A DNA stretch of 51,717 bases, taken from NCBI GenBank assembly GCA_003694635.1, contig RFKQ01000075.1, forward strand, positions 1 through 51,717. The letters run 5' to 3'. Shown here piece after piece: positions 1-29,815 of this stretch (within the stretch, counting starts at the first letter, position 1; every line of letters begins with the position of its first letter). Position numbers and translations under genes: made by a program. The notes below the pieces were generated by a model, which was not told where the DNA came from, ran no database searches, and worked only from the letters and a program-made list of their open reading frames with translations. This stretch comes from Planctomycetota bacterium. Its GTDB lineage: Bacteria > Planctomycetota > J132.

Positions 1-190
1 CCCCTAACCCCTTTTCCAAAACTTTTCTTCCCGGAACCTTTTTAAAAAAAGGTTCCGGACCTCCAAAAACTTCTGAGCCCTGAAACCCTTTTTAGAAAAA
101 AGTGTTTCAGACTTCCCAAAAACTTTTCCGACGTAAGGGGAACACTTTTTAGAAAAAAAGCTTCCACCACCACCTACCAAAAACCTCTTT
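1..190 (-). repeat. Array of at least 3.5 REP-like units (leader AAGTTTTTGG(R)GG plus 11-13 bp hairpin with GGAAC/GTTCC core), read on the minus strand, immediately 3' of hemC; runs off the left window edge
   Basis: The reverse complement gives GAGGTTTTTGGTAGG...GGAAGCTTTTT/AAAAAGTGTTCC, GAAAAGTTTTTGGGAAGTCTGAAACACTTTTT/AAAAAGGGTTTCAG and GAAGTTTTTGGAGGTCCGGAACCTTTTT/AAAAAGGTTCCGG. The last unit differs at about 3 positions from the unit at 6521-6576. The overlapping ORF 4..231 is only a translation of these repeats. Confidence 0.8.
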
Positions 191-1114
191 TCAAAATTTT
201 TCAAAAATACTCTGGATAATTTTCTCCCCACCCTTCCTCAAAAGTTCCTTAGCAAGCCTCTTCCCCAACTCTTCCGCCCCCCCCGCCTTCCCCGACACCA
301 AAGCATACACCCGCTCCTTTCCCTCCAAATCAAGCAGCACCCCCCGAAGAATAAGCTCCTCCCCCTCTATCTTTCCATACACTCCCAAAGGAAGTTGACA
401 CCCCCCTCCTAAAGCCTGCAAACAAGCCCGCTCCCCCGTAGTGGCCAAAAACGCACCTCTCTCCTCTACACAACCCAGCAACTTACATAATCCTTCCTCA
501 CCCTCCCGGCATACCACCGCTAAACTCCCCTGCCCCGCTGCTGGAAGCATTTCCTCATAAGAAAATGGCTCCACCCCTTTTTGGGAAAAGCCAAGACGCT
601 TTAAGCCGGCCAACGCCAAAATGGTACCATCCCAAAAAGAGCTTTGAACTTTGCGGATCCTTGTCTCAACATTGCCACGAATAGGGACAATTTGCAAATC
701 CGGGCGCAAATACAGCAACTGAGCCCTCCGACGAAGGCTGCCTGTAGCCACCACAGCGCCCCTCGGAAGCTCGGCAAAAGATAGCCCCTTAGGCGAATAA
801 AACGCATCCCTCGCATCCTCACGCTTGGTGATAGCGGCTAACTTTAGGCCAGGAGGAAGGGTAGTCGGCAAATCTTTGAGGCTGTGGACGGCAAAGTCAA
901 TCTCTTTTTGTAAGAGAGCCCAATCTAGCTCTTTGGTAAATGCCCCTGCAGAGAAATGATGAAGGGGTTTATCCCGATTCTTATCGGCACGGGTTTGGAT
1001 ATAACAAACCTTTAGTTGTACCTGGGGATAGTGCTTTTGCAGCTCTCTTTGGACATAATTTGTTTGCCATTGAGCTAAAGGACTTCTACGGCTGCCGACG
1101 CGGAGGATGGTCAT
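191..1114 (-). CDS. hemC: Porphobilinogen deaminase (hydroxymethylbilane synthase)
   Basis: The N-terminus MTILRVGSRRSPLAQWQ and full-length similarity match the HemC pattern (RGNVETR, GSLRRRAQL, ERACLQALGGGCQLPLG). I chose the ATG at 1114; the ORF track starts at a TTG at 1144. The gene overlaps the hemA 3' end by 29 nt. Confidence 0.9.
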   Translation of the reverse strand: MTILRVGSRRSPLAQWQTNYVQRELQKHYPQVQLKVCYIQTRADKNRDKPLHHFSAGAFTKELDWALLQKEIDFAVHSLKDLPTTLPPGLKLAAITKREDARDAFYSPKGLSFAELPRGAVVATGSLRRRAQLLYLRPDLQIVPIRGNVETRIRKVQSSFWDGTILALAGLKRLGFSQKGVEPFSYEEMLPAAGQGSLAVVCREGEEGLCKLLGCVEERGAFLATTGERACLQALGGGCQLPLGVYGKIEGEELILRGVLLDLEGKERVYALVSGKAGGAEELGKRLAKELLRKGGEKIIQSIFEKF

Positions 1115-2375
1115 CTGACTCATACCATTGAGACTGTAGATCAAAGAGTCTTTTGGCTATATTAAGCTTTAATCTACCACAAAGAGTGAATTTTCCCAAT
1201 TGTTTTAGTCTAGTAAATGGATGATGTAAGAGCTTGTTTAGCAAAGCTCGGGTAATGTGGTCTAGGTCTTCCCTCTCTTGAGGAGATAGATGGTGAGAAT
1301 GCTTGTCAAGCTCTTCTTGGCGAATGCTTTCGAGTTTTTCTCGAAGTGCTAGAATTATGGGAGCAGCGCTGCGCCCATTGCTCCAAGTAAGAAAACGTTG
1401 GAGCTCTTTGTAGAGAATATACTCAGCGTAGGGAACTTGCTTTTGACGCTTTTCTAGGTTTTTCTGTACAATATTTTGCACACCATCCAGCGCATACAGC
1501 TGTACAGAAGCTAGCTCGCCAATGGCAGGGTCTAAATTCCGAGGCACCCCAAGGTCAAGAAGTAAAACCGGAGAGGACTTTTGAAAACAGTGGCAAAAGT
1601 CCGATTTGGTAAAAAGAAATTTAGGGGAGTGGGTCGCAGCAATGACGATTTCCATTTGAGGAAGAATGCGCTCTTTCTGAGAGAAAGGAACAAAAATAGC
1701 TCCCCTCTCTCGAGCAAGCCCTTCCCCACGCTTAACAGAACGATTGGTGATCCAAAGTTGCCGAACTCCCTTTTGGCGAAGGTGCCAACTCACCAGCCGC
1801 GCCGTTTCCCCTGCACCGCATAAGAGTACGCACCGACTTTCAAGAGGAGCGCAAACATGTTGGGCAAGCTCCACAGCGGCAGAGGCCACACTCACCGCTC
1901 CCCGGCAAAGTCCAGTGGAGCGGTGCACCTTTTTGGCTGCAGCAAGGGCTTGGGTAAATAGCTTGTCAAGTATCGTTTCGGTGCTGTTGGCTTGAGCCGC
2001 CATCTGCCATGCCTCTTTGACCTGAGCTAGAATTTGCGTCTCGCCTAATATCATCGAATCCAACCCACAGGCTACACGAAAAAGGTGAAAAATCGCTCTC
2101 TGGGCCTCGTAGTAGTAGAAAGTATCTGGAGCTCTCCCCTTTTTCTGCTGGATAAACTCCAAAAGTACTGATAGAATATCAATATCTGGAGAGCTCAAAG
2201 TATAAATTTCTAGGCGGTTGCAAGTGGATAAAATCACCCCCCCTACTATCCCGTTGAGGCTTTGAAGTTCCCGAAGAGCTGGAGGAATCTCTTCTGGTAA
2301 AAAGGCAAGTTTTTCGCGCAAATCCAAAGGGAGAATCTTATGGTTGATGCCAAGTACAGCAATCTTTTGCAACAT
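1086..2375 (-). CDS. hemA: Glutamyl-tRNA reductase
   Basis: MLQKIAVLGINHK, the catalytic-Cys motif STCNRLEIY and the Rossmann motif CGAGETARLV are present. I chose the ATG at 2375 over the upstream in-frame start at 2396. Confidence 0.9.
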   Translation of the reverse strand: MLQKIAVLGINHKILPLDLREKLAFLPEEIPPALRELQSLNGIVGGVILSTCNRLEIYTLSSPDIDILSVLLEFIQQKKGRAPDTFYYYEAQRAIFHLFRVACGLDSMILGETQILAQVKEAWQMAAQANSTETILDKLFTQALAAAKKVHRSTGLCRGAVSVASAAVELAQHVCAPLESRCVLLCGAGETARLVSWHLRQKGVRQLWITNRSVKRGEGLARERGAIFVPFSQKERILPQMEIVIAATHSPKFLFTKSDFCHCFQKSSPVLLLDLGVPRNLDPAIGELASVQLYALDGVQNIVQKNLEKRQKQVPYAEYILYKELQRFLTWSNGRSAAPIILALREKLESIRQEELDKHSHHLSPQEREDLDHITRALLNKLLHHPFTRLKQLGKFTLCGRLKLNIAKRLFDLQSQWYESDDHPPRRQP

Positions 2376-2636: not shown

Positions 2637-3248
2637 ATGGACGCAATATGGCAATGGGATAAACATCTATTTTACATCCTCAATCAAAACAAAATCCCTT
2701 ACCCCCTAGAGAAATTAGCACTTTGGTTCCATTCCAATCTCAACTACTTAATTCCATTGGCAATAGCAATGGGCATCGCTTTTCTAAAAGGACGCCCCAA
2801 AGAACGCCGTTTTGTAGCGTGGTTATTGATCTTAATCATCGTAGTAGGCCTCGGCAATAAGGGACTGAAATATATCTTCCAGCGCCCACGCCCCCCCTAT
2901 ACCCTAGACAAACATCACCTACAACTAAGGGTCCCCCGTTCCACCATCCCCTCCTCCAGCTACTCCTTTCCCTCCGGACACAGCGCATTTTTCTTCGCCC
3001 TAGCGCTCTACACCAGCTGGCATTACCCTTCTTTGCTCCTCATCCTCCTCTCTTATCTCCTAGCCAGCTTTGTTGCCTTTTCCCGCATCTACCTAGGAGT
3101 TCATTACCCTCTAGATATTTTGGGCGGTTTCGCCTCAGGATCGACATTCGCCGCGCTTATCCTGCTTTTGCAATGCCACTGGACAAAGTCAAAAACCCCT
3201 CCCCAAACCTCCCCAAACCCACAAGATTCCAACCCTAACAAATCCTAG
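2637..3248 (+). CDS. PAP2-family (phosphatidic acid phosphatase type 2 / undecaprenyl-diphosphatase-like) membrane phosphatase
   Basis: The three PAP2 signature motifs are present: KYIFQRPRP, PSGHS and SRIYLGVHYPLD. There are multiple hydrophobic helices, and the SD-like GGAG lies 8 nt upstream of the ATG. Confidence 0.85.
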   Translation: MDAIWQWDKHLFYILNQNKIPYPLEKLALWFHSNLNYLIPLAIAMGIAFLKGRPKERRFVAWLLILIIVVGLGNKGLKYIFQRPRPPYTLDKHHLQLRVPRSTIPSSSYSFPSGHSAFFFALALYTSWHYPSLLLILLSYLLASFVAFSRIYLGVHYPLDILGGFASGSTFAALILLLQCHWTKSKTPPQTSPNPQDSNPNKS

Positions 3249-3425
3249 GAAGCTGATCCCCCTAACATAGATACATAGCCGTGGCACCACACATCGCTAG
3301 GCCATTCACGGTACCATAGACGGCCAATTTTCCAATGTCCCCCCGGGGAAAATCTGAGAGCCAAACCAAACTTCTCTCTAGCGTCGTATTCTCGATATTC
3401 TGGTCGAAGACCTAAGCCGCTTTGC

Positions 3426-4982
3426 TCAATTTCTCTCATCCCCCGCCATGCGCGGAGGACAACGTGAGAAAAAAAGAAACTGGATTAAACTTTCTATATT
3501 TTTTTGTATAGGATGAGCTGTATTCAGAGTGAAATCCGCTGGGACAAAGCAAGCATTCCTTTTCTGCTGCGCAAAAATCGACTCTCGTCCGTCAGAAATG
3601 GAGGGTTCGCTTTCCCTCTTTTTTAAGCGCGCTAGGATGGCGTCCTCTGGCGCGGTTAGAAGAACCTTCACAAGGTGGCAAGAGGGGGAAAAGAAAGCCC
3701 AATAGCGAGGGTCAGAAAAACTACCATCTAAGAGAGTGGCTCGAGCGAGCTGATCTTTCCGCTTTACAAAATTTGCCAAATCTTGGTAGAGCTCCAAAGA
3801 GTGTTGTTTGGAATAGATCCCCTTGCCGTACTCTTCATAAACTTTGGTATCTGGAGCTAGATGGTGGCGCTGTTTTCTAAGCTGGTCGGTATTTTTGTAG
3901 CTGAGAGGAAAGTTTTTAAGAAGGTGCGATGCCAAGGTACTTTTGCCAGTCCCCATAAGACCGTAGAGGACGATATGCTTGGGCTTTTCCAGGTGCAGGC
4001 TATAAAAAGAAGCCAACTGAGCTAAGCGTTCAAATTCTTTTCGCTTCTGGTGGAAATTGGGCCAACTTTTCCCCTTCTCTTCCAGCAAAAAACCGATCAC
4101 CTTCGCCCGAACATGGGCTCGATAACATTTGTAAAAATTCAATAGAGAGCGGCTTGCTTGATCATGATAAATTTTGAAAAATCCCTTCATCAGCGCATCC
4201 GAAAGCTCCACCTTACCTTCCTTGTCGAATTCCATGGCCAAAAAGCCAACCTCAGCAACCACATCGTTAAACCGGAAGCGATGGTTAAATTCAATGCAAT
4301 CGAGCATTTGCCATTTCCCCTGATGCCAGAAGACGTGCTCTAGGCGCAGATCCCCATGCCCGTCTTTGATATGTTTTTCTACGCGGGATTGAAAAAGACT
4401 TTTATGTTGATGCAAAAATCGATTCATGGCCTGTTGCATGGAGGAAAAATAGGGAAAACGGTGCTGGAAACGCTTTGTCTGCTCAAAATTTTCTTGGACG
4501 TTTTTACAGATCACGTCGTGGTTTCCCCACCTCTTTGCATCCTCCAGATTAGAGGGAAGGTTTTTTAATAGGATGGCGATTTCCTCTCCGAGCTGATGCA
4601 ATTGCTGTTGGGTAAGAGAATCGTGTTTGAGTTGGTAGGAAAGAAAACTTGTAGAAGGGATGCGCTTCATTTTTAAAACATATTCGAGCGCCGTAGGTTT
4701 TGCCTCAAGAGGAAGAAGCCGATATCGCTGCTTTTGGCGAACCAGCTTCAGGACCTCCAGGTAAATGCCACTACAGAAACGGCTATTGAGTTCTTTTTCC
4801 AAAAGCGAGTACTTCTTTCGCTGCTCTAGTGTACGGAAATCCAAAAACCCCAACGAGAGTTCTTTTTTTACCTTATACACGTACTCCGAAGTTAGAAAGA
4901 CCACGGAAATATGGGTCTCCACCACCTCCAAAGGTTGAAGGATTTCTCTAAGAATGGAAAGAGTGTCAGAAAAAGCCAACAT
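3426..4982 (-). CDS. Bifunctional aminoglycoside-phosphotransferase-like kinase / P-loop ATP-binding protein
   Basis: The N-terminal half is APH/choline-kinase-like (VETHISVVFL..YKVKK, HGDLRLEHVF). The C-terminal half has the Walker A motif GLMGTGKST. The start is ambiguous: ATG at 4982 or TTG at 5012. Confidence 0.75.
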   Translation of the reverse strand: MLAFSDTLSILREILQPLEVVETHISVVFLTSEYVYKVKKELSLGFLDFRTLEQRKKYSLLEKELNSRFCSGIYLEVLKLVRQKQRYRLLPLEAKPTALEYVLKMKRIPSTSFLSYQLKHDSLTQQQLHQLGEEIAILLKNLPSNLEDAKRWGNHDVICKNVQENFEQTKRFQHRFPYFSSMQQAMNRFLHQHKSLFQSRVEKHIKDGHGDLRLEHVFWHQGKWQMLDCIEFNHRFRFNDVVAEVGFLAMEFDKEGKVELSDALMKGFFKIYHDQASRSLLNFYKCYRAHVRAKVIGFLLEEKGKSWPNFHQKRKEFERLAQLASFYSLHLEKPKHIVLYGLMGTGKSTLASHLLKNFPLSYKNTDQLRKQRHHLAPDTKVYEEYGKGIYSKQHSLELYQDLANFVKRKDQLARATLLDGSFSDPRYWAFFSPSCHLVKVLLTAPEDAILARLKKRESEPSISDGRESIFAQQKRNACFVPADFTLNTAHPIQKNIESLIQFLFFSRCPPRMAGDERN

Positions 4983-5361
4983 AAGATCGCATTTGGTTGA
5001 AAAGCGTTGCAATTTTTTTAGATTTGCTAATATATAATAGCAAACTCTATGCCAGCTCTCCAGCAGCTAGAGAAAGTGTAAACGCAAAAAAGAATCCCGT
5101 TGCGGGTAAAAAAAGTATTTTTCCAACAAATCTTTGCAAGTACTTCGGCCTTATGCCGATGGAAAGGCAATGAAAAAATCACAAATCCCAGCTGGTGGTA
5201 GCGAATTTTCTCCCCTACAGGCAAAGGGAGAGCTCAAAACTTTCACTCAAACCTCCGCAGAAAAGAGCTGGCTTCATTCTCGGACCTGTGCGGGGGCGAG
5301 AGTCTCTTTTTTCGAGACACCATTCTTGAAATTCGAGAGTAACCTCAGTTTGGAGTAAGCC

Positions 5362-6426
5362 ATGGAATCCATTCTTATCACAGGAGGCGCTGGATTTGTT
5401 GGCTCCTATCTAGCCTTGAAATGGAAAGAAAAACAAAGCGCCTGCAAAATTAAAGTTCTGGACAATCTACGACGCCGAGGTTCTGAGCTCAACCTACCTC
5501 GTCTAAAGAAAGCGGGGATTGAATTTTTCCACGGCGATATCCGCCTACCAGAGGATTTGGAACAGGTAGGCGAGGTCCAGCTTCTCGTGGAATGCTCCGC
5601 CGATCCCTCCGTCCAGGCGGGGGTAAACCATTCGCCCGCTTATGTGATTGGCACCAACCTAACAGGGACTGTGAATTGCTTAGAATACGCCAGAAAGCAA
5701 GGCGCGAATTTCCTTTTTCTCTCCACCAGCCGGGTGTATCCCATCCCCTTGCTTCGCCAAATTCAGCTAAGGGAAACCCCAACCCGTTTTGAGCTTATGA
5801 ACGATCAAAATCTTCCGGGCGTGAGTGAGGAGGGCATTTCTGAAGATTTTCCTCTAGAGGGCCATCGCAGCTTCTATGGCGCAACCAAACTCGCCTCTGA
5901 GCATATTATCCAAGAATATGTGGCAAATTATGACCTAAAGGCTGTGATCAACCGCTGCAGCGTTCTCGCCGGGAGCTGGCAGATGGGCAAAGTGGATCAA
6001 GGTGTGGTTAGCCTGTGGATGATACGCCATTTTTTTCGCCAATCGCTGCGCTACATTGGCTTTGGAGGAACAGGCAAACAAGTGCGCGATGTTTTGCACC
6101 TCCAAGATCTTTTCCAGCTCCTCTGGCATCAGCACAAGGAAATACAACAGCACGCTGGCAAGGTGTACAACGTAGGAGGAGGACGAGAAAATAGCGTTTC
6201 TTTGCGCGAGCTTACCTCTCTTTGCGAAAAGTACACTGGCAACTCCGTAGAAATTCTCCCTCAACCCCAGACCAATCCACAGGATATACCGCTCTACATC
6301 AGCGATTGCCGCCGAGTAAGAAATGTTTTCAACTGGCACCCCACGGTCTCGATAGAGGAAATTCTCGAAGAAATCGCTAGGTGGTTGCGTGACTATAGGA
6401 GTCAGCTTGAGTATGTTTTCACCTGA
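5362..6426 (+). CDS. Extended-SDR NAD-dependent sugar-nucleotide epimerase/dehydratase (CDP-paratose 2-epimerase-like)
   Basis: It has the GGAGFVGSYL Rossmann motif, STSRVY and the catalytic YGATK (YxxxK). Confidence 0.8.
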   Translation: MESILITGGAGFVGSYLALKWKEKQSACKIKVLDNLRRRGSELNLPRLKKAGIEFFHGDIRLPEDLEQVGEVQLLVECSADPSVQAGVNHSPAYVIGTNLTGTVNCLEYARKQGANFLFLSTSRVYPIPLLRQIQLRETPTRFELMNDQNLPGVSEEGISEDFPLEGHRSFYGATKLASEHIIQEYVANYDLKAVINRCSVLAGSWQMGKVDQGVVSLWMIRHFFRQSLRYIGFGGTGKQVRDVLHLQDLFQLLWHQHKEIQQHAGKVYNVGGGRENSVSLRELTSLCEKYTGNSVEILPQPQTNPQDIPLYISDCRRVRNVFNWHPTVSIEEILEEIARWLRDYRSQLEYVFT

Positions 6427-6462
6427 GTTTTGGCTAAGAATCGTGAGGTGAGGTGATCAACG

Positions 6463-6690
6463 AAAGTTTTTGGGAGGGAGTGGTAGGGGGAAACCTTAGA
6501 GGGTTCCTCCTACCACAGAGAAGTTTTTGGAGGTACGGAACCTTTTTTCTAAAAAGGTTCCGAGAAGAAAAGTTTTTGGGAGGGGGTCGGTAGGGGGAAC
6601 ACTTTTTCCAAAAAGGGTTCCCCCTATGGCTCGAAAGTTTTTGGAGGTACGGAACCTTTTTTCTAAAAAGGTTCCGAGAAGAAAAGTTTT
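6463..6690 (+). repeat. Four tandem REP-like units of about 57 nt in two alternating subtypes; includes a 56-bp perfect direct repeat (6521-6576 = 6635-6690)
   Basis: Each unit has the leader (G)AAAGTTTTTGG(G)AGG followed by a hairpin. Examples are CGGAACCTTTTT-tct-AAAAAGGTTCCG (12 bp perfect, 6536-6562) and TAGGGGGAACaCTTTTT-cc-AAAAAGgGTTCCCCCTA. ORF 6527..6748 is a translation artefact of the array. Confidence 0.9.
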
Positions 6691-6708
6691 GAAAAAGAAG
6701 AGGAAAAT

Positions 6709-7773
6709 ATGGCTAAAATTGCGGTTATCACTGGTTCTGCTGGTTTGATTGGATCGGAGTCGGTTTATTTTTTAGGGGACAAGATGGATTTGGTTGTGGG
6801 GATTGACAATGATATGAGAAGATATTTTTTTGGCGATAGTGCTTCCACTTTATGGTGTCGTCGGGAGTTGGAGGAGCAGGTGGCAAATTATCGCCATTAT
6901 TCTGTAGACATACGAGATAAGGACTCGATTGAGCGGATATTTCGGGAGTATGGGGAAGATATCGATCTTATCATACACACCGCTGCGCAGCCTTCCCATG
7001 ATTGGGCGGCTAGGGAGCCGTTTACAGATTTTCATATCAACGCCACAGGGACATTGATTTTACTGGAGGCCACAAGGCAGTTTTGCAGCAAGGCCAAATT
7101 TATTTTTACTTCTACCAACAAGGTTTACGGGGACCGCCCCAACACTCTTCCGCTGAGAGAATTGGAGAAGCGCTACGAGTTGGAGGAAACTCATCCTTTT
7201 TATAGGGGAATTGATGAGAGCATGAGCATCGACCAATCTCTGCATAGTTTATTTGGTGCTTCCAAGGTAGCTGCGGATATTTTGGTCCAGGAGTACGCCC
7301 GTTATTTTGGAATGTTCACCGTTTGTTTTCGGGGGGGATGTCTCACCGGTGGGCGCCATAGTGGCGCCGAGCTTCACGGTTTTTTATCGTATTTGATGCG
7401 GTGCGCAATTACGAAAAGCCATTATACCATTTATGGATACAAGGGGAAGCAGGTGAGAGACAACATACACAGTTATGATTTGGTGAATGCGTTTTGGCAT
7501 TATTACCAAAACCCGCGTCCTGGTGGAGAGGTGTACAACATTGGCGGAGGGCGTCATAGCCATTGCTCGGTGTTGGAGGCGATGGATTTATGTCAAGAAA
7601 TTAGTGGAAATAAAATCAATTATACCATTTCCCCTACCAATCGTATTGGGGATCATATCTGGTGGATTAGCGATGTTAACAAATTTCGCTCCCACTATCC
7701 GGAATGGGAATACAAGTATGATCTTAAGGAAATTTTATCTGAAATTTATCGTCTATGGATGAAAAAAATTTAA
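6709..7773 (+). CDS. Extended-SDR NAD-dependent epimerase/dehydratase family protein
   Basis: It has the GSAGLIGSE Rossmann motif, TSTNKVYGD, and the position of YxxxK reads FGASK (see findings). Confidence 0.8.
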
Positions 7774-9563
7774 CAAATCAAAGCCGCCCAGAAATCTCTA
7801 TTGTAGTTCCGGCCCACAATGAGGAGGAGAATCTAATCCCCCTAGTGGAAAAACTGCAAAACACCTTGCAGAAGGATTCTAAAAAAAGGGAATACGAAAT
7901 CGTTCTTGTGGATGACAATAGCACGGATGGTACCCCAGCGCTGGTGGACAAACTTGCCAACGAACACCCGCGCATACGCGCCGTTCATCGATACAAAGAT
8001 GGCGGCTTTGGCAACGCGGTAAAGCGAGGGCTTCGGGAAGCCCAAGGAAAGTTTATTGTACCGGTGATGGCGGATCTTTCTGAAGAGCCTGAAGACATTT
8101 TAAAATTGGTGGACAAACTGGAAGAAGGATATGATATTGCGTATGGCTCCCGTTTTTGCAAAGGCGGGAGCGTAGAGGGATATCCACGCTTAAAGTTGAT
8201 CGTAAACAGGTTTGGCAACCACTTAATTCGATTTCTTTTTGGAATTTCTCATAAAGATATTACCAACGCTTTTAAGGCTTACCGCCGAGAGGTCTTGGAA
8301 GCTGTAGGGATTGAGAATTTGAAATCATCGGACTTTTCGCTTACGATTGAAATCCCCTTAAAAGCGCATATCCTAGGTTTTAAAAGCGCAGAGGTCCCCG
8401 TTCGTTGGTACGGCCGGCAAAAGGGAGAAGCCAAATTAAAACTCTCGGAACACTGCCATAAATACGGTTTCCGTCTCCTTCAGATGTTTTTCCAAGGCAA
8501 TCAACTGGCCCTCCGAGAGCTGTTTGCTTCCATTGTGGGGAAGTCAAAAAAAAGAAGCATTCTCTATTTTCTCCTAGGCCTAGGGTTGGTATTGGCGTTG
8601 ATCCATTTGGCAGGATTGGCAAACATACAAGCTCTTATATTCAAAATATCGCCTTATTTCATTTTGGCTAGTCTTGGGGCGATTTTAAGCAGCTTTATTT
8701 TGCGCACATGGCGCTGGAGTGTGCTTTTGCGAAGCTGCGGTTATCGAGAAGAACGCAGCATTTTGTTCAAAAGTATCCTAAGCGGGTGGTTTTTAAACTA
8801 TCTTCTGCCCTTTCGGCTAGGAGATGCAGCTAGAGCGTTGAGCTTAAAAACCACTCGCCATAAGCCGCTCCTGATTTCTTTTTTTACCATTGTGCTGGAG
8901 CGACTGATGGATCTGGCAATCTTTTCTCTAGTCCTGGCCTATGCATGGGGGAGGCTTTCTTTCTCAAAAGAACAGTACACAAGCCTGCTCTGGATCGGAG
9001 TGGCAGTTGCTCTGGCGATCGGATTCACGATTTTGCTATGGAAATATGAGAAATGGCTGCTGAAATGTTTGCCAAAATTTCTTTTTGACCTCCAAGAAGA
9101 ACTGCGTCTATTTCCCCAAGCCGCTCGATCCATCTTTCAAAATCCTTTTGCGCTAGCCCTTTGCTTCGCGATCACAGTTGGCATTTGGTTTTTCGAAATC
9201 GCTAGCCTCTATTTCATCGGCAAAGGCCTAGGGCTGGATTTGCCCTTCTGGGAAAGCACGCTAGCTGGGATAAGTGCCTTCCTCGCCCAAGCCTTTCCCA
9301 CAATACCCGCAGGACTCGGCATACACGAAGCAGCCATTGCAAGCACCCTATACAGTAAAGGTATCCCTTTTGATCAAGGACTTTCCTTGGCCCTATTGGA
9401 TCATTTCTGCAGAATGCTGGTGATCTTTGGGCTCGGGTTAGTGGCCACTATACACCTTGGATTTGAATCCAGGCACTTTTTCCACCACCGCTCCCGCGCT
9501 TGGGAAAAAGTAAGAAAATCAACCAAAAGCAAACCACAGACTTCTGGGTTTGGAGACGAATAA
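7755..9563 (+). CDS. Family-2 glycosyltransferase (Dpm1/polyprenyl-phosphate sugar synthase-like) fused to a lysyl-PG-synthase-type (UPF0104, flippase-like) transmembrane domain
   Basis: The N-terminus is [14 protein letters not shown]...VDDNSTDGT (GT-A fold, DxD-like). The C-terminal half has about 8 hydrophobic helices with [12 protein letters not shown], typical of the LPG_synthase_TM family. It overlaps the upstream gene by 19 nt. Confidence 0.8.
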
Positions 9564-9785
9564 GCTCCAAAAGTAAGGATGACAGCCCCACAAAAATAAA
9601 CGCAAAACCAAATGCTCAAGCTCCGAAAGGACAGCCACAGACAAAAATCAACGCGTTCCAAGATGCAAATCTCTTTTCTCAAAACATTCAAAAATGTCTA
9701 GAATTCAGAAAAAATTTCCTTAAAATAACACTAGAAAACATTTCTCGATAATGATGATCTATTTTGAATTTGGTGATGATAGCAT

Positions 9786-11510
9786 ATGGAACATCCCCGC
9801 ACAAAACCAGCTCTATTTGGGCAAATCGCCCTAGAATTGGGATTTCTCTCCCAAGAGGAACTAGAGGAAGTACTGAAATATCAACAAAAACTCCAAAGCC
9901 TAGGGTACAGCGAATTCTTCGGCGATATCTGCCTGAAACTAGGCTATTTGACAAAATCCCAAGTGGATCAGATCATCCAATACCAACGCAATACCACTCC
10001 CACCCCTTCCCTAACCTACGGCCAAATTGGACTGCAAAACGGCTTTTTTACCCCCCAACAACTCCAAGAATGCATCGAACTCCAAAAAAAATCACCCACC
10101 TACGCCCCCATTGGACACTACCTACTGAAAAAAAACTACATCACTCCAGAAAACCATCAAGCCATCCTTAAAGCGCTTTCAAGAGCCTCCTCCCCATCCC
10201 TCCCTCCTAAAACCGTACAGCTCACAAAAACCTCCCCCTCAGAACTCAATCAGCTCTACGGACGTGTTGCCCTAGAATACGGCATGGTAACCCCCCAACA
10301 ACTGGACGAATTTTTCTATAAAAAAGCTCCCGATGCCCAAAAATTTAAAAAATTGGAAGACTATCTTCTCGCCAAAAATTATATTACCACTGGAGACCAC
10401 CATTTCATCATCAAAACAATCGAAAAAAGAAAAATCTCCGAAAAATATACCCAACGACAAAATGAACTAAAAAATATCCACTATGGCAAAGGCTGGGGCA
10501 AACAACTAACCGTCCAATGGATCCAAGAACAGCTCTCCCTAGGAGAAACAAAAACCTCTAAATCCAAAACCAATCTCACCGAAGCGGAAATCCACTCCAG
10601 ACTACTCTTCCTAAAAATCAAACAAATGTTCTCCCCCAACGTCTTCCGTATCGTCGCCCCCCTCTCCCAAGGTGGAACAGCGGTGGTCTACCGAGCCATC
10701 TACCGCCAAACCGGCCAAGAAGTAGCCATCAAAATCCTACCCTCCTACGAAGTCTCAAAAGACGTCCTACCAAGGGATATGCTCCAAGACCAAGCCAGAG
10801 AAAAAAGATTTCAACGGGAAAAACTTATCCTCCAAAAAATCCATCACCCCAATATTGTCCAAATTTTAGATGCTGGCGAAGTCCAAGACTTTTCGTATTA
10901 TGTGATGGAACTTCTGGAAGGACTCACGCTAGACAGAATTATCTGGAAAGCCAAATACCTAGAAGAACGCTACGCCCTGGAAATCACCCTCTCCATCGCC
11001 CTAGCCCTTGAACATATTTGGAAACTGTCCGTCTTCCATAGAGATGTCAAACCGGACAATATCCTCATCCTACCAAATGGAAACATCAAACTACTGGACT
11101 TTGGATTGGCCAAACACCACCCACCAACATCTAAAAAACAAATTACGCCAGAAAATCTTATTCTAGGGACCCCTTCCTACATGGCCCCAGAACAATCTGG
11201 ACTGCTAAAAAATTTTGACCCAGATATCCGATCCGATATCTACTCCCTAGGTATCACCCTCTTCTATATGCTCGCCGGACACCCCCCCTACTCCCACCCC
11301 TCTCCCCTCTCTCTCATGATGATGCACCTAGAAGAAGAAATCCCCTCTATTCGACAAAAACGTCCCGAAATCTCACATCAAACCGAATCCATCCTCCAAA
11401 AAATGCTAGCCAAACACCCAGACTACCGCTACCAAACCCCATCTGAGCTGATCAACGACCTAAAAAAAGCCCTAGCTTTCTTTCTAAAAGAAAGAACCCA
11501 ATCTCCCTAG
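9786..11510 (+). CDS. Hanks-type Ser/Thr protein kinase with six N-terminal MshEN/T2SSE_N-like 24-aa repeats
   Basis: Kinase motifs present are GGTAVVYRA...VAIK, HRDVKPDNIL, DFGLA and GTPSYMAPE. An example N-terminal repeat is LFGQIALELGFLSQEELEEVLKYQ. Confidence 0.9.
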   Translation: MEHPRTKPALFGQIALELGFLSQEELEEVLKYQQKLQSLGYSEFFGDICLKLGYLTKSQVDQIIQYQRNTTPTPSLTYGQIGLQNGFFTPQQLQECIELQKKSPTYAPIGHYLLKKNYITPENHQAILKALSRASSPSLPPKTVQLTKTSPSELNQLYGRVALEYGMVTPQQLDEFFYKKAPDAQKFKKLEDYLLAKNYITTGDHHFIIKTIEKRKISEKYTQRQNELKNIHYGKGWGKQLTVQWIQEQLSLGETKTSKSKTNLTEAEIHSRLLFLKIKQMFSPNVFRIVAPLSQGGTAVVYRAIYRQTGQEVAIKILPSYEVSKDVLPRDMLQDQAREKRFQREKLILQKIHHPNIVQILDAGEVQDFSYYVMELLEGLTLDRIIWKAKYLEERYALEITLSIALALEHIWKLSVFHRDVKPDNILILPNGNIKLLDFGLAKHHPPTSKKQITPENLILGTPSYMAPEQSGLLKNFDPDIRSDIYSLGITLFYMLAGHPPYSHPSPLSLMMMHLEEEIPSIRQKRPEISHQTESILQKMLAKHPDYRYQTPSELINDLKKALAFFLKERTQSP

Positions 11511-11571
11511 TCCTCCGCAACGAATAAAATCGCAATCACCACTTTTTTTTTTAAAAAAGCCCGAAAAAACG

Positions 11572-12585
11572 ATGAAATTTTCTCTTACCCCTTTGTCCAA
11601 ATTCAAATCATCTTTGCCTATTTTGCTCTCCATAACTATCCTAATCCCAATCCCCCTACTCCTCTGGCTAGGCTACCTATGGCAAATCGCCCCCGGCATG
11701 CCTTTCCTAGACCTTCTCTCCGTAGAAAAAAAAACCTTCGTCGTCTTGGGCGATCCCCAACAAACCAGCTGGTGGGAAACCACCTTCCTGCAAAGATCCA
11801 ACAATCGTAAAGTCACCACCCGCCTCTTCCAATTTATCGCCGCAGAACAACCAGACTTTGTAGCCCTACTAGGAGACCTGGTTTTCTACGGCGCAAACCA
11901 CTCCAATTGGACAGACTTTGATCTCTTCGCCCAACCCTTGCAAAAAAGAGGAATTCCTACCCTTACCGTCCTAGGAAACCATGACTACTTCGGCCCCGAT
12001 TCGATCGCCTTGGCCAATGTGTATTCCCGATTCCCACAACTGAGCCAACAACATTGGTATCTCCGAATCTACGGCAGCCTTGCCCTGATTTTCTTAGACT
12101 CCAATCAGTCCGCCATGCCCCCCTCCCACTGGCAAAAACAAATCCATTGGCTAAAAAATACCCTAACCTCCCTCGAACAAAACCCCCGCATCCAAGCCAT
12201 CCTATTCCTCGCCCACCATAGCCCCTACACCAATGACCTCTACTCCCCAGATGCCCAACACCTACGCCCGTGGTTAAACCTCTTCTTCTCCAGCCCAAAA
12301 TCCATCCTCTTCCTAAGTGGACACTGCCACGGCTATGAACACTTTGTCAAACAAAAGAAACATTTCGTCGTCTCTGCAGGCGGTGGCGGCCCCCGCAAAA
12401 AACACCTCCAAGGCCCCAACCAACGCCACCCCGATCTCTACACCGGCCCCTACCCTCGCCCCTTCCACTATCTGCGCCTCCAATTGCAAAAGTCCCACCT
12501 CCACATACAAGCGATGGGACTCTTTTCCAACTCCCTCCGCTGCTTCGATGAGTTTTCCATCCCCCTCCCCACCACCCCCCAGTGA
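11572..12585 (+). CDS. Membrane-anchored calcineurin-like metallophosphoesterase
   Basis: It has an N-terminal TM helix, then VVLGDPQ, GDLVFYG, GNHD, AHHSPY and SGHCHGYEH, which is the metallophosphoesterase motif series. Confidence 0.8.
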   Translation: MKFSLTPLSKFKSSLPILLSITILIPIPLLLWLGYLWQIAPGMPFLDLLSVEKKTFVVLGDPQQTSWWETTFLQRSNNRKVTTRLFQFIAAEQPDFVALLGDLVFYGANHSNWTDFDLFAQPLQKRGIPTLTVLGNHDYFGPDSIALANVYSRFPQLSQQHWYLRIYGSLALIFLDSNQSAMPPSHWQKQIHWLKNTLTSLEQNPRIQAILFLAHHSPYTNDLYSPDAQHLRPWLNLFFSSPKSILFLSGHCHGYEHFVKQKKHFVVSAGGGGPRKKHLQGPNQRHPDLYTGPYPRPFHYLRLQLQKSHLHIQAMGLFSNSLRCFDEFSIPLPTTPQ

Positions 12586-12613
12586 TCCTCATCCCCTGAG
12601 CATCCCCTTATCT

Positions 12614-12793
12614 AACCTACTCGTAAATCACCGGGGTTAAATACTCCCTCGCATGGGGACGAAAATGGGTCTCCATTAAATTCTTATAGTAAACCTATTT
12701 TAGACGCCTTCGAACAACCTACTCGTAAATCACCGGGGTTAAATACTCCCTCGCATGGGGACGAAAATGGGTCTCCATTAAATTCTTATAGTA
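12614..12793. repeat. 78-bp perfect direct repeat (12614-12691 = 12716-12793) separated by 24 bp; the second copy is the 3' end plus stop codon of the CDS at 12719..14146
   Basis: The string aacctactcgtaaatcaccggggttaaatactccctcgcatggggacgaaaatgggtctccattaaattcttatagta is read twice in the sequence. Confidence 0.95.
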
Positions 12794-14146
12794 TTTGTAA
12801 AAATACTCGTGCTCGTGGGGAGGGAAATCACTCCACTCAATGGCATATCGAATGATCTCATCAAAATAGCCCCTGTCGTAAAACTCAATAAGCTTGTCCT
12901 CCAAATCGCTGAAATTTTCCTCCACAAATTTGTTAAAATCCTCCTCCCCATAGTATTCCTCGGAAAGCTTTCGATGGTACTCATACTTCTCCAACTGACT
13001 CCTGTTGGGATCATTGAGGACCTTTAAATACCTCTCCTGCTCCATGTCCATCCTCAAATCCTTCTCCGTGACAGCACAGTAAATAATCCACTTCAACAAA
13101 GCGCCAATCACCCAAAGAAAATGCACGTGCAAAGAAGTAAAATTCGTGTCTGGACAAGCGTTGGCAAAATCAATTGGATGAATGATATTGTCCTTGATGA
13201 TCGCCTCGTAAGAGTTGTAATTCCAACGATGGTAAGAGTTGATAAACTTCACATAACTCGCAAGCCGCTCAAACATGTCCTTGTTGACCTTTAACTTCTC
13301 CTCCGAATAATGTTGATGGTGCGGCTTGTCCGGCTGATAACGCATGGGAATGATCTGAGGACCTAATGCCATACAACGAATAAAAACATCATAATCCTCA
13401 ATCGCCTCTTGCAAATGAAACGCCTTACCCCCCGTTTCGTCATATTTGGCGTACAACTCCTCCAATGAGCGCACCTTATACACTTCGCTGCCACCACCGC
13501 CTTGAGCCTTCTTAAGATAAAGGGGGAATTTATTGTCAAAATATTTCTCCACCGCCTCCTTGAGGTAATTTCCTTGATAATAAAAATCTTGGCGCATCTT
13601 TTTGTTGAGCTTTTGAAAATGAAGCGCCCGCTGATAATCGTGCTCCACCTTCTGCCAATCCGTCTGGCGCCGCCGCTCATCCCAGCCATATTTGGTGTAC
13701 TTAATGATCAACTGCTGGCGGTACTTCCACAAATCTTCCTTTTCCAACTCCTCCGTGTAAGGGCTGTATTGGGGCAACAACACCGTGATGGGAAACCTGT
13801 CCTTGGGATGCATCGCCCGAGCCATCAAATCGTACGTGCTATGCTTGTCATGGTTGGCAAAAGAATTGGGGTAATTTAAAATCTGCATCTGAGACTGCAC
13901 CGCCGCCTGGGCCCAATAGCGGTAGAAATCATTCCAGTGTACCGTGCGATCCACCACCAAATCCGCCTTATCCCGCAAACTCACCCCACACTGAATGGGC
14001 TCAGCAATCACCCGATCCAACTCCACTTTGTATTTTTTGCCCTTATAAGTGTAGGTCCTGTCCAAAAAACGATTGATCTCATTGCAAGCCCGACGCATGC
14101 TCCAGTCGTAAGAGGCCATAATGCAAATTCTCTTTTTGATCGCCAT
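12719..14146 (-). CDS. ATP-grasp-like ligase family protein (uncharacterised)
   Basis: The layout resembles ATP-grasp enzymes: an N-terminal pre-ATP-grasp region ([22 protein letters not shown]), a glycine-rich loop [35 protein letters not shown], and [12 protein letters not shown]. No precise family was recognised. Confidence 0.5.
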
Positions 14147-14348
14147 AGCTTCCTTAAAATCCCTTCTAAATTTTTAAAAACTTTCCAAAAATTCAACTTG
14201 ACCAACATTTGCTCGGAAATTGTATCCTCTCCTCCTAGAAAAACAACCCTAAATTCCTTGAAAATTTCCCCCACCTTCCCTATAATATACCCCGCTCCCC
14301 TCTATTCGGTATCCACCCTTCTGAACGCCCGCCAATCCCTAAGCAACC

Positions 14349-15062
14349 ATGCGCTACGCCTTTATCTCTGATATCCACAGCAACTACACCGCCCTAAAAA
14401 CCGCTCTGGAGAAAATCCAACAACTCCAAGTGGATAAAATCCTATGCCTCGGCGATATCGTCGGCTATGGAGCCGAACCCAATGAATGCCTAGCCGCCGT
14501 AAAAAAATACTGCCACTACACCATCTTGGGCAACCATGACCTGGCTCTAATCGAAGAAAACGCCGCCAAAAACTTCAATCCAGAAGCCAAAATCGCCATC
14601 GAATGGAACCGGAAAAAAACCAAACGCAAATATTTCCACTTCCTCCGCTCCCTTCCCTATAAACTTAAATTCAAACACTTCCTCGCCGCCCACGCCAATC
14701 CCTGGCAACCCAAAAAATGGACCTATGTCCACCACCACACCGTACAACCCGCCCAATGGCAAAACCTCCACCCTCCCCTCTGCTTCATCGGACACTCCCA
14801 TATCCCCGTGGTGATCACCCCCAAAAAAGAATACTCCACCCACCACTGTAAAATTCCTCCTAGCCAAAAATGCATCGTCAACGTTGGCTCCATCGGCCAA
14901 CCCCGAGACGGGGATAGACGCCTCAGCTTCGGCGTCTACGATACCAACAACGGCCTCTACCAACTCTTCCGCCTGGACTACGACTACGAACGAGCTGTAA
15001 AAAAAATCCGCAACGCCGGCCTACCCGCCTACCTATCCAACCGCCTGCTCTTTGGAAAATAA
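14349..15062 (+). CDS. Metallophosphoesterase family protein (YfcE/MJ0936 or PrpE-like)
   Basis: Motifs present are FISDIHSN, LGDIVGYG, GNHD and GHSH. Confidence 0.8.
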   Translation: MRYAFISDIHSNYTALKTALEKIQQLQVDKILCLGDIVGYGAEPNECLAAVKKYCHYTILGNHDLALIEENAAKNFNPEAKIAIEWNRKKTKRKYFHFLRSLPYKLKFKHFLAAHANPWQPKKWTYVHHHTVQPAQWQNLHPPLCFIGHSHIPVVITPKKEYSTHHCKIPPSQKCIVNVGSIGQPRDGDRRLSFGVYDTNNGLYQLFRLDYDYERAVKKIRNAGLPAYLSNRLLFGK

Positions 15063-15247
15063 TTTCCCCTTCACCAAACTCCCTTGCCAAGCGCCCATTC
15101 CCTCCTCCACCAGCATTCAAAATCATCCCTCCCCAAAGTGCCTTAGCAAGAAAGGATTGGAAATCTTTATCTATCTCCTCCAAAGTGCCTTGCCAAGAAA
15201 GAGTTGAACAACCATCCCCCAAAATCCCCTTCCTCTTCTAAAAAATT

Positions 15248-16456: not shown

Positions 16457-16474
16457 CGCTTCTTCTCCTTCCAT

Positions 16475-16505
16475 AAAAAAAAGGCAAGGAACCAAACCTT
16501 GCCTT
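16475..16505 (-). terminator. Rho-independent terminator-like hairpin on the minus strand (AGGCAAGG-tttggtt-CCTTGCCT followed by T8)
   Basis: On the + strand this reads aaaaaaaaGGCAAGGaaccaaaCCTTGCC. On the minus strand a 7-9 bp GC-containing stem is followed directly by eight U. It lies about 300 nt downstream of the GT39 gene stop and abuts the hydrolase start region. Confidence 0.6.
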
Positions 16506-16803
16506 CTCTCTCTTTCCAACTTAATCGATATTCTGATTTGTAAAATGCAAACTAGAACAACTTCTCCAAATCCACCAACAAAAAACTCCCCACTCCCCTC
16601 CAGAACAACGCCGAAAATCCGAAGGGAAAACAAAACCAAAACCTATTTTTGTCCCTAACCTCAACTCCATCATACAAGGACCTCTTCTCCAACGCTTTTA
16701 TAGCGCCAAACCTTCTTCGCTTTTTCTCTCTCTTTAGTATAAAGCAGCTAGGGAATATTTTCAAGCAAATTTTTCCCTCAGAACCGAACTTTCTCCCCCG
16801 CCC

Positions 16804-18522: not shown

Positions 18523-19160
18523 CGTAGAAATCCTCTCTGCAACTTTCTCTTTTTTTAAAAACTCTTGCGATTTAGAAAAAAAACCCTTTGTAAAACAACA
18601 TCTTTTCTATGAAAACGCCTGATCAGGGGGAAACCTCTTCAGAAAAATGCTCCCTCTCCCACCCTCCTCCCAAAAATTTTCTTACTTTTTCCTAAAAACT
18701 TCCCAAACTCCCCTCCATACTCCCTCCCAAAAATTTAAACAAAAACTTGCATTCTATCCCAATCCATCCTATGATATACCCTATATCCCCACAAACTCAA
18801 CCCCTCTATCCCTAAATCCCACATCGAGAAATTTACTCCACCCTACAATAAAAAATTATGAAAAATCGATACACCACCCTCTTCCTCTCCCACTTCCACC
18901 CGGGAAAAAATCCTATAAAATAGGAAAAATCTTTGAAAACTTCATCAAAGAAAATCTAACCTTCCCAAGATACGAAATCAACCAAAGAGGGTTCGCTATA
19001 CCAGTATGGAACTCGACTTCTCCAAAGAAGCCATGCAAATTCTATGAAAACTTCTCCAAACAAGATCAAAATCTTAGAAAAAAATCCATAAAATCAATTT
19101 ACCTAATTTAAAATTTGAAGTCCACTCTTCCTCTCCCCAAATCCTAACCATATCTCTTCC

Positions 19161-29805: not shown

Positions 29806-29815
29806 CTCTCTCCCC

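Follow-up and report, generated by a model that had tools for sequence, protein, structure and literature searches.

The window analysed here, a whole contig of 51,717 nucleotides, comes from the Jinata hot spring (~63 °C) and belongs to a MAG labelled Planctomycetota. Its left end holds hemC and hemA. The start codon of hemC is an ATG at 1123, the open reading frame running on to a TTG at 1144, and the hemA stop overlaps this start region; the Logan gene call for hemA has 429 aa. Two compositional states, designated S and N and described below, alternate along the window. The features are collected in Table 1.

Table 1. Genes, compositional tracts and other features of the window
Feature	Position	Strand	Remarks
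Intergenic DNA 3' of hemC	1..190	.	S-type; C56/G21, GC skew -0.45
Terminator-like repeat units	within 1..190	.	AAAGTTTTTGGGAGG spacer and A5/T5-extended hairpin
hemC (hydroxymethylbilane synthase)	191..1123	-	Intact 310-aa CDS, RME03864.1; PF01379 and PF03900
S-type tract, 3' 40% of hemC	191..583	-	Silent sites almost without coding-strand C
Compositional junction interval in hemC	539..584	.	HMM boundary, LRT split, last regular coding-strand C3, conservation map
hemC 5' part and hemA 3' end	584..1481	-	Unbiased to weakly opposite polarity
hemA (glutamyl-tRNA reductase)	1086..2375	-	Pfam GlutR_N, Shikimate_DH, GlutR_dimer; N-type
PAP2 phosphatase gene	2637-3248	+	Pfam PAP2; mostly within S-type island 2699..3137
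S-type island in N block	2699..3137	+	Four-fold A23 C39 G3 T12
Main N-type block	3140..9848	.	Four-fold A198 C227 G199 T179
Genes of main N-type block: AAA/kinase-like, two epimerases, GT2-LPG-synthase	3140..9848		Pfam matches
Main S-type block	9851..36354	.	Genes on both strands; GC4 skew -0.67 to -0.77 per segment
N-like patches in main S-type block	12737-13952, 16154-17092, 18868-19015, 33949-34135
N-like patch inside intact 1838-aa acetyl-CoA carboxylase (ACC) gene	43759..44395	+	Second intragenic boundary pair
Type III restriction enzyme Res-like gene	48670..51663	-	RE_endonuc Pfam match on Logan gene call

An earlier note on this DNA had reported that strand polarity changes inside an intact hemC gene, and this proved correct. 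The base counts it gave are exact (C31/G6 at 241-300, G18/C5/T21 at 1201-1260), and in the 310-aa reading frame a maximum-likelihood split falls at position 584 (LRT 37.1, permutation p ≤ 0.003), the strongest within-gene change in the window (largest LRT, 32 genes). Read on the plus strand, the four-fold sites of hemC are A18 C32 G1 T10 to the left of 584 and A32 C18 G31 T11 to its right; Fisher's test on four-fold G:C (30:1 vs 17:31) gave p = 1.4e-8. The four-fold GC skew (GC4) is -0.9 (to -0.94) in 191..583 and its sign flips at ~580, from -0.94 to about +0.3. Over 584..1481 the four-fold G:C on the plus strand is ~47:22 and the skew climbs from +0.1 to +0.64. All-site GC skew is -0.63 over 191-540, -0.15 over 540-840 and +0.14 over 840-1144. 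On the coding strand, C stands at the third codon position (C3) 46 times in codons 1-187 vs 3 times in the 130 codons 188-317, the last regular occurrence being at position 584, while a 2-state HMM on 6911 four-fold sites placed the boundary at 539/542. The earlier note also held that conserved motifs run unbroken across the change. All 8 of the most conserved HemC blocks were indeed found, DFAVHSLKDLP, LGGGCQLPLGV and TGSLRRRAQLL among them, and they lie on either side of the switch. The junction lies between or within two of them, LALAGLKRLGF (587-619) and PAAGQGSLAVV (512-544); this proximity is not significant, such blocks making up ~28% of hemC. As expected of a mosaic gene, hemC consists of sharply bounded blocks with the reading frame and the conserved motifs intact. 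A further claim, that the plus strand becomes G+T-rich through hemA, holds over ~840-1480 (G+T 0.568, GC skew +0.16) and fails for hemA as a whole (G+T 0.467 over 1480-2396), the GC3 skew of hemA being -0.06.

The compositional switch in hemC is confirmed as real. It is not an amino-acid effect, because the skew changes along the gene at third positions and at four-fold sites. Third-position G:C on the coding strand, which the earlier note had proposed to follow along hemC, is not constant (62:3 over 191-540, 33:18 over 541-840, 19:28 over 841-1144), and the four-fold G:C is 30:1 on the 3' side vs 4:18 on the 5' side. Compared with 119 homologs, the 3' part of HemC is enriched in Gly (z +3.5) and Glu (z +2.7), and the 5' part is enriched in Gln (z +3.0) and poor in Gly (z -2.2). 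Since the Gly/Glu enrichment is relative to homologs, the bias is the cause and the enrichment its consequence. At codon positions 1+2 the polarity score is +1.8 in hemC 191..583, -0.4 in the 5' part of hemC and -1.1 to -1.7 in the 3' part of hemA. The two halves of hemC have had opposite long-term histories, as seen in their amino-acid shifts and in their polarity at positions 1+2.

The nearest full-length HemC among 5.8 billion proteins is 52% identical; none with an identity between 52% and 100% was found there, Logan proteins of the same run included, and no homolog exceeds 58% identity to either part. The separate phylogenies of the two hemC halves suggested by the earlier note were realized as identity rankings only. 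One homolog, P0002, stands near the top for both: it comes second in the ranking of the 5' part, at 57%, and fourth in that of the 3' part, at 43%. Spearman's rho between the two parts is -0.11, with the reservation that identities of ~50% have little resolving power. Both halves appear to share a similar closest relative. Different closest relatives or a donor for the two blocks were not found, power being low at such divergence, and block-wise phylogenetic incongruence of the halves, classically the proof that a gene is mosaic, did not emerge from these rankings. The S part of HemC is over-diverged from the homologs (0.37 vs 0.44), the 5' part being about as diverged from them as they are mutually (0.52 vs 0.55). 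For the N-type proteins tested, clusters hold the sequence of this organism only, save a 43-aa fragment in one.

The junction in hemC is one of ~19 boundaries in a contig-wide mosaic. The extreme bias of this mosaic, of which hemC is one edge, had been missed in the earlier note. The S state occupies ~62% of the contig, in intergenic DNA and in genes on both strands. Its four-fold sites on the plus strand are A.27, C.56, G.08 and T.09 in genes of both orientations (GC skew ~ -0.75); on the minus strand they read G.56, T.27, C.08 and A.09, G and T being enriched together on the same strand. The N state, with roughly balanced composition, covers the other ~38%. The BIC was 17318 with one state, 16873 with two and 16854 with three. 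Genes of the S block have a plus-strand GC3 skew of -0.5 to -0.85 and an AT3 skew of +0.4 to +0.7 whether they lie on the plus or the minus strand, and intergenic GC skew reaches -0.5 to -0.9. Read in coding sense, plus-strand genes have a four-fold C of.50-.67 and minus-strand genes a four-fold G of.43-.62, and a transcription-linked asymmetry was rejected on account of this opposition. The bias decreases from codon position 3 to position 1 to position 2. It is mutational and strand-specific. N-type genes on both strands show an ordinary coding-sense preference for C/T-ending codons, and N-block genes score from 0 to -1.7 at codon positions 1+2; the N state is mostly neutral and is no mirror image of S. 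Sharp intragenic boundaries occur in hemC, ACC and amy2, and several patches inside genes measure merely 0.2-0.6 kb. The S state extends over the whole of the SerRS gene and of the ACC biotin-carboxylase domain, and we rejected the idea that protein constraint or codon selection shields the N tracts. Polarity switches locally along this contig without the behaviour of an origin or terminus.

The Markov-normalised tetranucleotide signature of the pooled N tracts (Res gene excluded) correlates with that of S at r = 0.62; the N1-N2 comparison gave 0.59, and loci of the nearest relatives 0.1-0.3. The pooled N tracts do not carry a signature unlike the host's, as a foreign island would. Any donor of the N tracts would have been kin and not a distant genome, because N and S share this signature and P0002 is among the closest relatives of both HemC halves. 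Distant horizontal transfer is disfavoured for the bulk of the N tracts on the same grounds of signature.

Recent arrivals of DNA do occur on the contig. The Type III Res-like gene has a four-fold GC content of 0.75, takes its own state in the 3-state HMM and was probably acquired horizontally; the orphan N-type gene at 12719-14146 has an atypical composition and is flanked by a perfect 78-nt duplication. In the ACC patch the four-fold sites are A27 C35 G32 T12, and the flanks have a GC4 skew of -0.69. The epimerase at 6709-7773 is opposite in composition to its neighbours and overlaps the start of the next gene, in the same orientation, by 19 nt. A search with the orphan protein 38177-38779 matched itself alone, and relatives of the kinase are distant (41% identity), their loci being without skew. 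Substitutions could not be polarised with the tandem epimerases (31% identity) or with the amylase-like paralogs (35% over 230 aa), which have diverged too far. No Rfam families were found in the window. The orientation of the repeat element follows the upstream gene at every copy. A reversed copy had suggested an inversion of 6427-7773; it is not evidence for one, because element orientation tracks the upstream gene, and the idea was abandoned. The hairpin motif itself occurs at 115 or more loci in unrelated genomes.

The NCBI contig is a four-sample MEGAHIT co-assembly, and we compared it with independent Logan assemblies (k=31) of the single run SRR7905022. These reproduce ~27.6 kb of the contig, including the hemC junction, with 5 SNPs between assemblies. 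Logan contigs cover 285-6546, 6661-12565, 35890-39136 and 39138-51346, crossing at least 10 boundaries unbroken; the one spanning the hemC junction (L002, 285-6546) shows 1 mismatch. An identical full-length copy of the ACC protein is also present in Logan. The contig carries two compositional regimes that are independent of gene orientation, meet at sharp boundaries inside genes and are reproduced in a second assembly.

Our preferred reading, held tentatively and at somewhat less than even confidence, combines an extreme strand mutation bias of the replication type with tracts acquired, through homologous recombination, from kin of different strand history. The bacterium would be a thermophile under unusually strong strand-specific mutation pressure, which pushes the minus strand towards G and T and the plus strand towards C and A. 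Deamination-type damage would be expected to act in this direction on whichever strand stays single-stranded longer in replication, and we infer a replication-linked cause. The S tracts would have been in their present orientation long enough to come near equilibrium, at silent sites and in intergenic DNA and, more weakly, in amino-acid composition. The N tracts, unbiased or weakly opposite, would be more recent arrivals in their present context. A few would be inserted foreign genes, and most would have come through homologous (homeologous) recombination with related lineages that carried the same locus with another replication-strand history; recombination as their source is likewise inferred. 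In such a scheme hemC may be a mosaic gene: its 3' 40% would be old resident DNA, and its 5' 60% would form with hemA a tract that was imported or is of a different age. Boundaries could fall inside genes with the frame undisturbed, since the end of a recombination tract is set by the place where the crossover resolves.

In favour of this preferred reading, the hemC halves are opposite both in amino-acid shifts and in positions 1+2 polarity. Import by recombination, one of three candidates in the earlier note, fits best among them, given the sharp boundary, the opposite amino-acid shifts, the opposite score of the hemA 3' part and the contig's own tetranucleotide signature. Its further element, a lineage of opposite polarity, stands less well: the right side is mostly unbiased or weakly opposite without being a mirror image, and an opposite-polarity donor is supported for ~584-1480 and the epimerase 6709-7773 only. 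Against the preferred reading counts that the donor or kin lineage was not found, the nearest HemC being as distant as stated above. It implies that ~38% of the contig arrived recently, which is a lot. The bias analysis covers this one 51.7-kb contig of the genome.

Among the alternatives, a strand-specific mutation process regionally confined to some kilobase-scale tracts, heedless of gene boundaries, is the best placed, and we consider it unlikely though worth weighing; the earlier note had named a patch-wise single-strand mutational process among its candidates. The N tracts would then keep the ancestral codon usage. The process could be due to R-loops or ssDNA of long lifetime, to a deaminase acting on ssDNA or, in the Fe-rich water at 63 °C, to oxidative damage to G. 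A single tetranucleotide signature for N and S tracts, a similar nearest relative for both HemC halves, the absence of a donor lineage from databases, the ordinary C/T-ending preference of N-type genes on both strands, and the over-divergence of the S part of HemC alone all agree with it. However, we know of no bacterial process that is limited to arbitrary tracts of 0.4-25 kb, maintains one strand polarity across both gene orientations and lasts for the time that a shift in amino-acid composition requires. Protein constraint gives no shelter, as the fully S SerRS gene and ACC domain show, and the stretch 584-1480 leans opposite at all codon positions instead of being neutral. In a wider formulation, which we hold doubtful but a little easier to entertain, a free-living thermophilic bacterium would possess a mitochondrion-grade strand-specific mutation process rewriting silent sites in kilobase-scale tracts without respect for gene boundaries, either regionally confined or operating in a repair-deficient hypermutator continually patched by homeologous recombination from non-mutator kin. 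If either version were true, the contig would be a record of mutation pressure and recombination at sub-gene resolution.

Intragenomic rearrangement alone seems rather improbable. At various times, inversion or translocation would have changed the position of blocks with respect to replication direction, and the blocks would now stand at differing stages of re-equilibration. The earlier note was right that the switch calls for more than a simple inversion; its stronger statement, that an inversion-type switch cannot fall inside an intact gene, admits two exceptions, a replication terminus and recombination between inverted homologous copies. In the latter case two inverted hemC-like copies would have recombined, inverting the intervening DNA and leaving both genes chimeric but intact. 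A tract half-way from opposite polarity to S would resemble N and keep the genome signature, the N-block scores at the slower positions 1+2 are those predicted by a former opposite orientation, and the epimerase 6709-7773 is opposite to its neighbours. Yet a second hemC copy would be needed, as would duplicates for the ACC and amy2 patches, and none was seen in the window. Moreover, the overlap of this epimerase with the next gene start is unlike an inverted block, and several patches are just 0.2-0.6 kb long and intragenic.

A chimera of assembly or binning, joining two organisms or strains at shared k-mers, has a small residual probability. The co-assembly of four samples, the position of the hemC S part at the contig end and the nearness of the junction to conserved motifs, where k-mers could be shared, would allow it. 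Such a chimera is nevertheless unlikely, because Logan contigs span the hemC junction and no HemC of intermediate identity exists among the 5.8 billion proteins. Single-run k=31 contigs pass at least 10 boundaries without a break and with 5 SNPs, synteny and reading frames are preserved across every switch, and HemC proteins of 53-99% identity, hence the complementary parental halves, are absent from this protein set, Logan assemblies included. The chimeric consensus assembly proposed in the earlier note is accordingly disfavoured.

A replication terminus or origin inside hemC, with fork direction changing at ~580 and no rearrangement, is scarcely credible and was rejected. A fork-direction switch can fall in an intact gene and would suit the change of four-fold sign from -0.94 to about +0.3, but a mirror-image state would be expected over the whole flank, whereas opposite polarity extends over ~0.9 kb only, is followed by neutral DNA, and gives way to full S polarity on the same strand at 2.7-3.1 kb and again at 9.9-36 kb. 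Finally, that selection on amino-acid composition or codon usage in a Gly/Glu-rich C-terminal domain made the coding strand G-rich has virtually no chance of being right: the hemC 3' part is indeed Gly- and Glu-rich, but four-fold counts alone change along the gene, the enrichment is measured relative to homologs, and the same bias occurs in intergenic DNA and, with opposite coding sense, in plus-strand genes.

The strand asymmetry of this contig equals that of animal mitochondria in strength, and it toggles within genes that are intact. Should the bias be linked to replication, the composition of a tract would serve as a clock for the time spent in its present orientation, and one genome of an uncultured thermophile would suffice to read the history of recombination and rearrangement. 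If it is regionally confined in place, it would point to an undescribed bacterial strand-specific mutagenic process. On genomes of this kind, binning by composition, gene finding and the analysis of codon usage will give odd results, because the synonymous codons used on one strand hardly overlap with those used on the other.

In bacterial chromosomes, compositional asymmetry between the strands is normally weak, GC skew typically not exceeding a few tenths, and its changes are confined to the origin and the terminus. As in that asymmetry, a G+T-rich strand here faces a C+A-rich one whatever the gene orientation, and the bias peaks at four-fold sites and extends to intergenic DNA. Here, however, the bias has a much greater amplitude (GC skew of -0.7 to -0.94 at four-fold sites, ~ -0.5 over all sites) and is broken on a sub-gene scale, not switched once each at origin and terminus. 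Mosaic genes arise by interspecies homologous recombination, those for penicillin-binding proteins being an example. hemC resembles them in its blocks of differing character joined in frame and in its tract lengths, between a few hundred bases and a few kilobases; here, however, blocks are told apart by strand composition and not by similarity to different species, and donor sequence was not found. The Res gene and the orphan 12719-14146, with their atypical composition and, for the orphan, a flanking duplication, resemble the horizontally acquired, ameliorating islands cited in PMC3269016. Most N tracts differ from ordinary foreign islands: their tetranucleotide signature is the host's, and parts of core genes lie within them.

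In vertebrate mitochondrial DNA the asymmetry between heavy and light strands is attributed to asymmetric mutation during replication (PMC4182315). The contig matches the direction and magnitude described there, one strand being A+C-rich with very little four-fold G, but it is a bacterial chromosomal fragment with housekeeping genes, and its bias is patchy and forms no gradient. A precedent is found in the Microgenomates bacterium Ch65 and UBA1400 relatives from a thermal aquifer, which show a G/C disparity along the whole chromosome (PMC7143001). Like Ch65, the organism studied here lives in a thermal environment and has about twice as much C as G on one strand, independently of gene strand. 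In Ch65 there is no A/T disparity and the trend is continuous over the chromosome (PMC7143001), whereas the present contig is also A/T-biased and its bias is interrupted by unbiased tracts, even inside genes.

The polarity switch that the earlier note had described lies within a hemC gene that is intact in its reading frame, domains and conserved blocks (table), and the base counts on which it was based were reproduced exactly. The description of the + strand to the right as G+T-rich held up to about 1480, but not for the remainder of hemA. Third-position skew, which had been named as the decisive check, varies along the gene: the coding-strand G:C ratio is 62:3 over 191-540, 33:18 over 541-840 and 19:28 over 841-1144. 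An explanation by amino-acid composition is therefore very unlikely, and the coding-strand four-fold sites themselves shift, with G:C of 30:1 versus 4:18. Coding-strand C occupies 46 third positions in codons 1-187 and 3 in the last 130 codons, the last regular one being at 584. When the four-fold sites were tested by likelihood for a change point, the gene split at this same position (LRT 37.1, the highest of the window's 32 genes; permutation p ≤ 0.003), with + strand counts of A18 C32 G1 T10 to the left and A32 C18 G31 T11 to the right.

The window is a complete contig of 51,717 nt, which NCBI holds in a MAG under the label Planctomycetota bacterium, with proteins from RME03864.1 on and locus tags D6805_*. 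Its reads (run SRR7905022) come from Jinata Onsen, an iron-rich hot spring in Japan with a temperature of about 63 °C at emergence. The hemA-hemC order is also found at the locus of the nearest relative available (L001), whose HemC is 52% identical.

Over the whole window, the + strand contains 16,078 C and 8,829 G. Between about 9.8 and 37.9 kb, the + strand skews in genes of both strands are -0.5 to -0.85 for GC3 and +0.4 to +0.7 for AT3. A hidden Markov model was fitted to the 6,911 four-fold sites of the window, and two or three states were strongly preferred over one (BIC 16,873 and 16,854 versus 17,318). On the + strand, the S state is C- and A-rich (A.27, C.56, G.08, T.09) and the N state roughly balanced (A.26, C.31, G.27, T.16), while the third state is limited to one gene at the right contig end. 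S tracts make up about 62% of the contig. Of the roughly 19 boundaries, several lie inside intact genes (table), the first at 539/542 within hemC, where a replication terminus is unlikely to lie.

Features of the window discussed in the text
Feature	Position	Strand	Remark
hemC	191-1123 (ORF to 1144)	-	intact; both Pfam domains; 8/8 most conserved HemC blocks
hemA	1086-2375	-	overlaps hemC at its 3' end
S island	2699-3137		inside intact PAP2 gene
S/N boundary	36363		inside intact amylase-like gene
N patch	43759-44395		inside intact 1838-aa acetyl-CoA carboxylase gene
Terminator-like intergenic repeat	1-190, 6427-6708, 18623-18744, 48634-48671		3' of genes

In the coding sense, four-fold codons of S-type genes end in C (50-67%) when the gene is on the + strand and in G (43-62%) when it is on the - strand, and the intergenic DNA of the S block is as biased as the genes (GC skew -0.5 to -0.9). 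In N-type genes, whichever way they are oriented, C/T endings are mildly preferred, as is ordinary. What carries the bias is thus the DNA strand, and not the direction of transcription or the composition of the proteins. A G+T-rich - strand, independent of gene orientation, is a hallmark of replication-associated asymmetry, which is defined by a reversal at ori and ter; on this one contig, the S state showed orientation independence, a maximum at silent sites and joint enrichment in G and T.

Several genes have features of their own. In the + strand epimerase gene at 6709-7773, it is the coding strand that is G+T-rich (four-fold A.14, C.22, G.31, T.33), opposite to the neighbouring + strand genes, yet the gene shares a 19-nt operon-like overlap with the start of the next one. 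The acetyl-CoA carboxylase (40028-45544) is a single chain of eukaryotic style, with biotin carboxylase, biotin carrier, ACC_central and carboxyltransferase domains. A Ser/Thr kinase gene (20404-22833) encodes two kinase domains and contains an internal duplication (period ~890-897 nt, 71-75% nucleotide identity). Two adjacent small genes (38177-38779 and 38831-39403) have short nucleotide repeats in common, and the product of the former has no homolog except itself among 5.8 billion proteins.

The NCBI contig stems from a MEGAHIT co-assembly of four samples (2x100 Illumina reads). The Logan assemblies, made from a single run with k=31, are independent of it. Logan contigs match the window over 285-6546, 6661-12565, 35890-39136 and 39138-51346, differ from it at five single bases overall, and cross the hemC junction and at least 10 further boundaries unbroken. 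The first of them (L002) begins directly after a run of eight C at 277-284, in the S part of hemC. A chimera of two organisms would need the sample to contain the complementary halves as well; among 5.8 billion clustered proteins, Logan gene calls included, none was a HemC of more than 52% and less than 100% identity. Both results count against a chimeric assembly, which the earlier note had considered, and make it unlikely. The clusters of the N-type proteins tested contain this organism's sequence only, save for one 43-aa fragment. The intact ORFs of 1104 and 1838 aa in S DNA and the grading of the bias by codon position exclude an artefact of sequencing chemistry.

We compared strand-symmetrised, Markov-normalised tetranucleotide usage. 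The correlation is 0.62 between S and N, 0.85 within S and 0.59 within N, versus 0.1-0.3 with loci of the nearest relatives. This signature indicates that the N tracts are native or come from close kin rather than from an unrelated genome, with two likely exceptions. One is a Type III restriction Res-like gene (48670-51663; 9533-12208 on Logan contig L124) of foreign-looking composition, with a four-fold GC content of 0.75 and its own HMM state. Gene calling on the single-run Logan contig divides it into two genes (393 and 475 aa), and SNPs occur in it at 49840 (C/T) and 49920 (C/A); an interrupted copy may be polymorphic in the population. The other is an N-type orphan gene (12719-14146), whose 3' end is duplicated just downstream as a perfect direct repeat of 78 nt (12614-12691 and 12716-12793, 102-nt spacing). 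The duplication falls exactly at an S/N boundary, and Logan contig L003 ends just short of it, at 12565. This repeat may be the scar of a recent insertion or duplication, or an assembly loop.

The terminator-like repeat consists of a spacer (AAAGTTTTTGGGAGG...) and a perfect hairpin (CGGAACCTTTTT-TCT-AAAAAGGTTCCG), and matches no Rfam family. Outside the window, it was seen at loci L011, L015, L021, L037, L058, L080 and L094 and on many CAYMGG01 contigs. Among the matches listed, about 44-48 nt of it, including flanks beyond the search pattern (…GGACCTCCAAAAACTT…), are ~92% identical in MAGs of unrelated phyla, namely Aminicenantes, Acidobacteriota, Omnitrophota, Eubacteriales and Desulfomonilaceae, and one Planctomycetaceae MAG contains multiple copies. 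Such conservation of a small repeat element across phyla is unexpected.

The two parts of HemC were compared separately with 119 homologs. In the 3' (S) part, Gly (z +3.5) and Glu (z +2.7) are in excess, and Thr, His and Pro are scarce. The 5' part has an excess of Gln (z +3.0) and of CNN-codon amino acids (z +2.2), and a shortage of Gly (z -2.2). Measured against the divergence among the homologs, that of the S part is excessive (0.37 to homologs vs 0.44 among homologs) and that of the 5' part about equal (0.52 vs 0.55). The protein P0002 is among the closest relatives of both parts, at rank 2 (57%) for the 5' part and rank 4 (43%) for the 3' part. A polarity score on codon positions 1+2, with the S-type gene mean scaled to +1, gave +1.8 for the hemC 3' part, -0.4 for its 5' part, -1.1 to -1.7 for the hemA 3' end and ~0 to -0.8 for other N-block genes. 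Together with a + strand four-fold G:C of ~47:22 over 584-1479, this shows that at every codon position the tract directly right of the junction leans the opposite way, most of the N block being near neutral.

The interpretation in the earlier note is supported in part: among the causes it put forward, import by recombination is the best candidate. We tentatively favour a recombination mosaic for hemC and the N tracts, because homologous recombination would yield tracts that, like these, are smaller than a gene, keep the frame and have kin-like signatures. High temperature would plausibly amplify damage to single-stranded DNA. Under a uniform pressure, S tracts would be old residents, and N tracts would have spent a time in their present context much shorter than the relaxation time. 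The 3' 40% of hemC would thus be resident, and its 5' 60%, with hemA, would derive from a tract of different strand history. Against this, no donor was found, and about 38% of the contig would have to be recent. hemC has the structure of a mosaic gene but not its donor or phylogenetic signature, in a test of little power at ~50% identity. The main rival, which we consider doubtful, is a strand-specific mutation process restricted to some tracts in place. It accounts for the common S/N tetranucleotide signature and for the absent donor, but is without known mechanism and leaves the opposite-leaning tract unexplained. Neutral or opposite states could also have arisen if blocks had been inverted at different times and hemC had been rebuilt via inverted duplicates; this reading needs duplicates, none of which was seen, and appears less probable still.

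No description of the composition of this MAG was found in literature searches on extreme skew, which turned up other systems, or in the methods and results text available for its source paper. In Microgenomates of a thermal aquifer, a whole-strand G/C disparity was described, with 29.8% C and 15.0% G (PMC7143001). The phenomenon seen here is real, strong and unusual: the bias is similar in amplitude to that of mitochondrial DNA, and the contig represents an extreme form of strand asymmetry, broken up at sub-gene scale.
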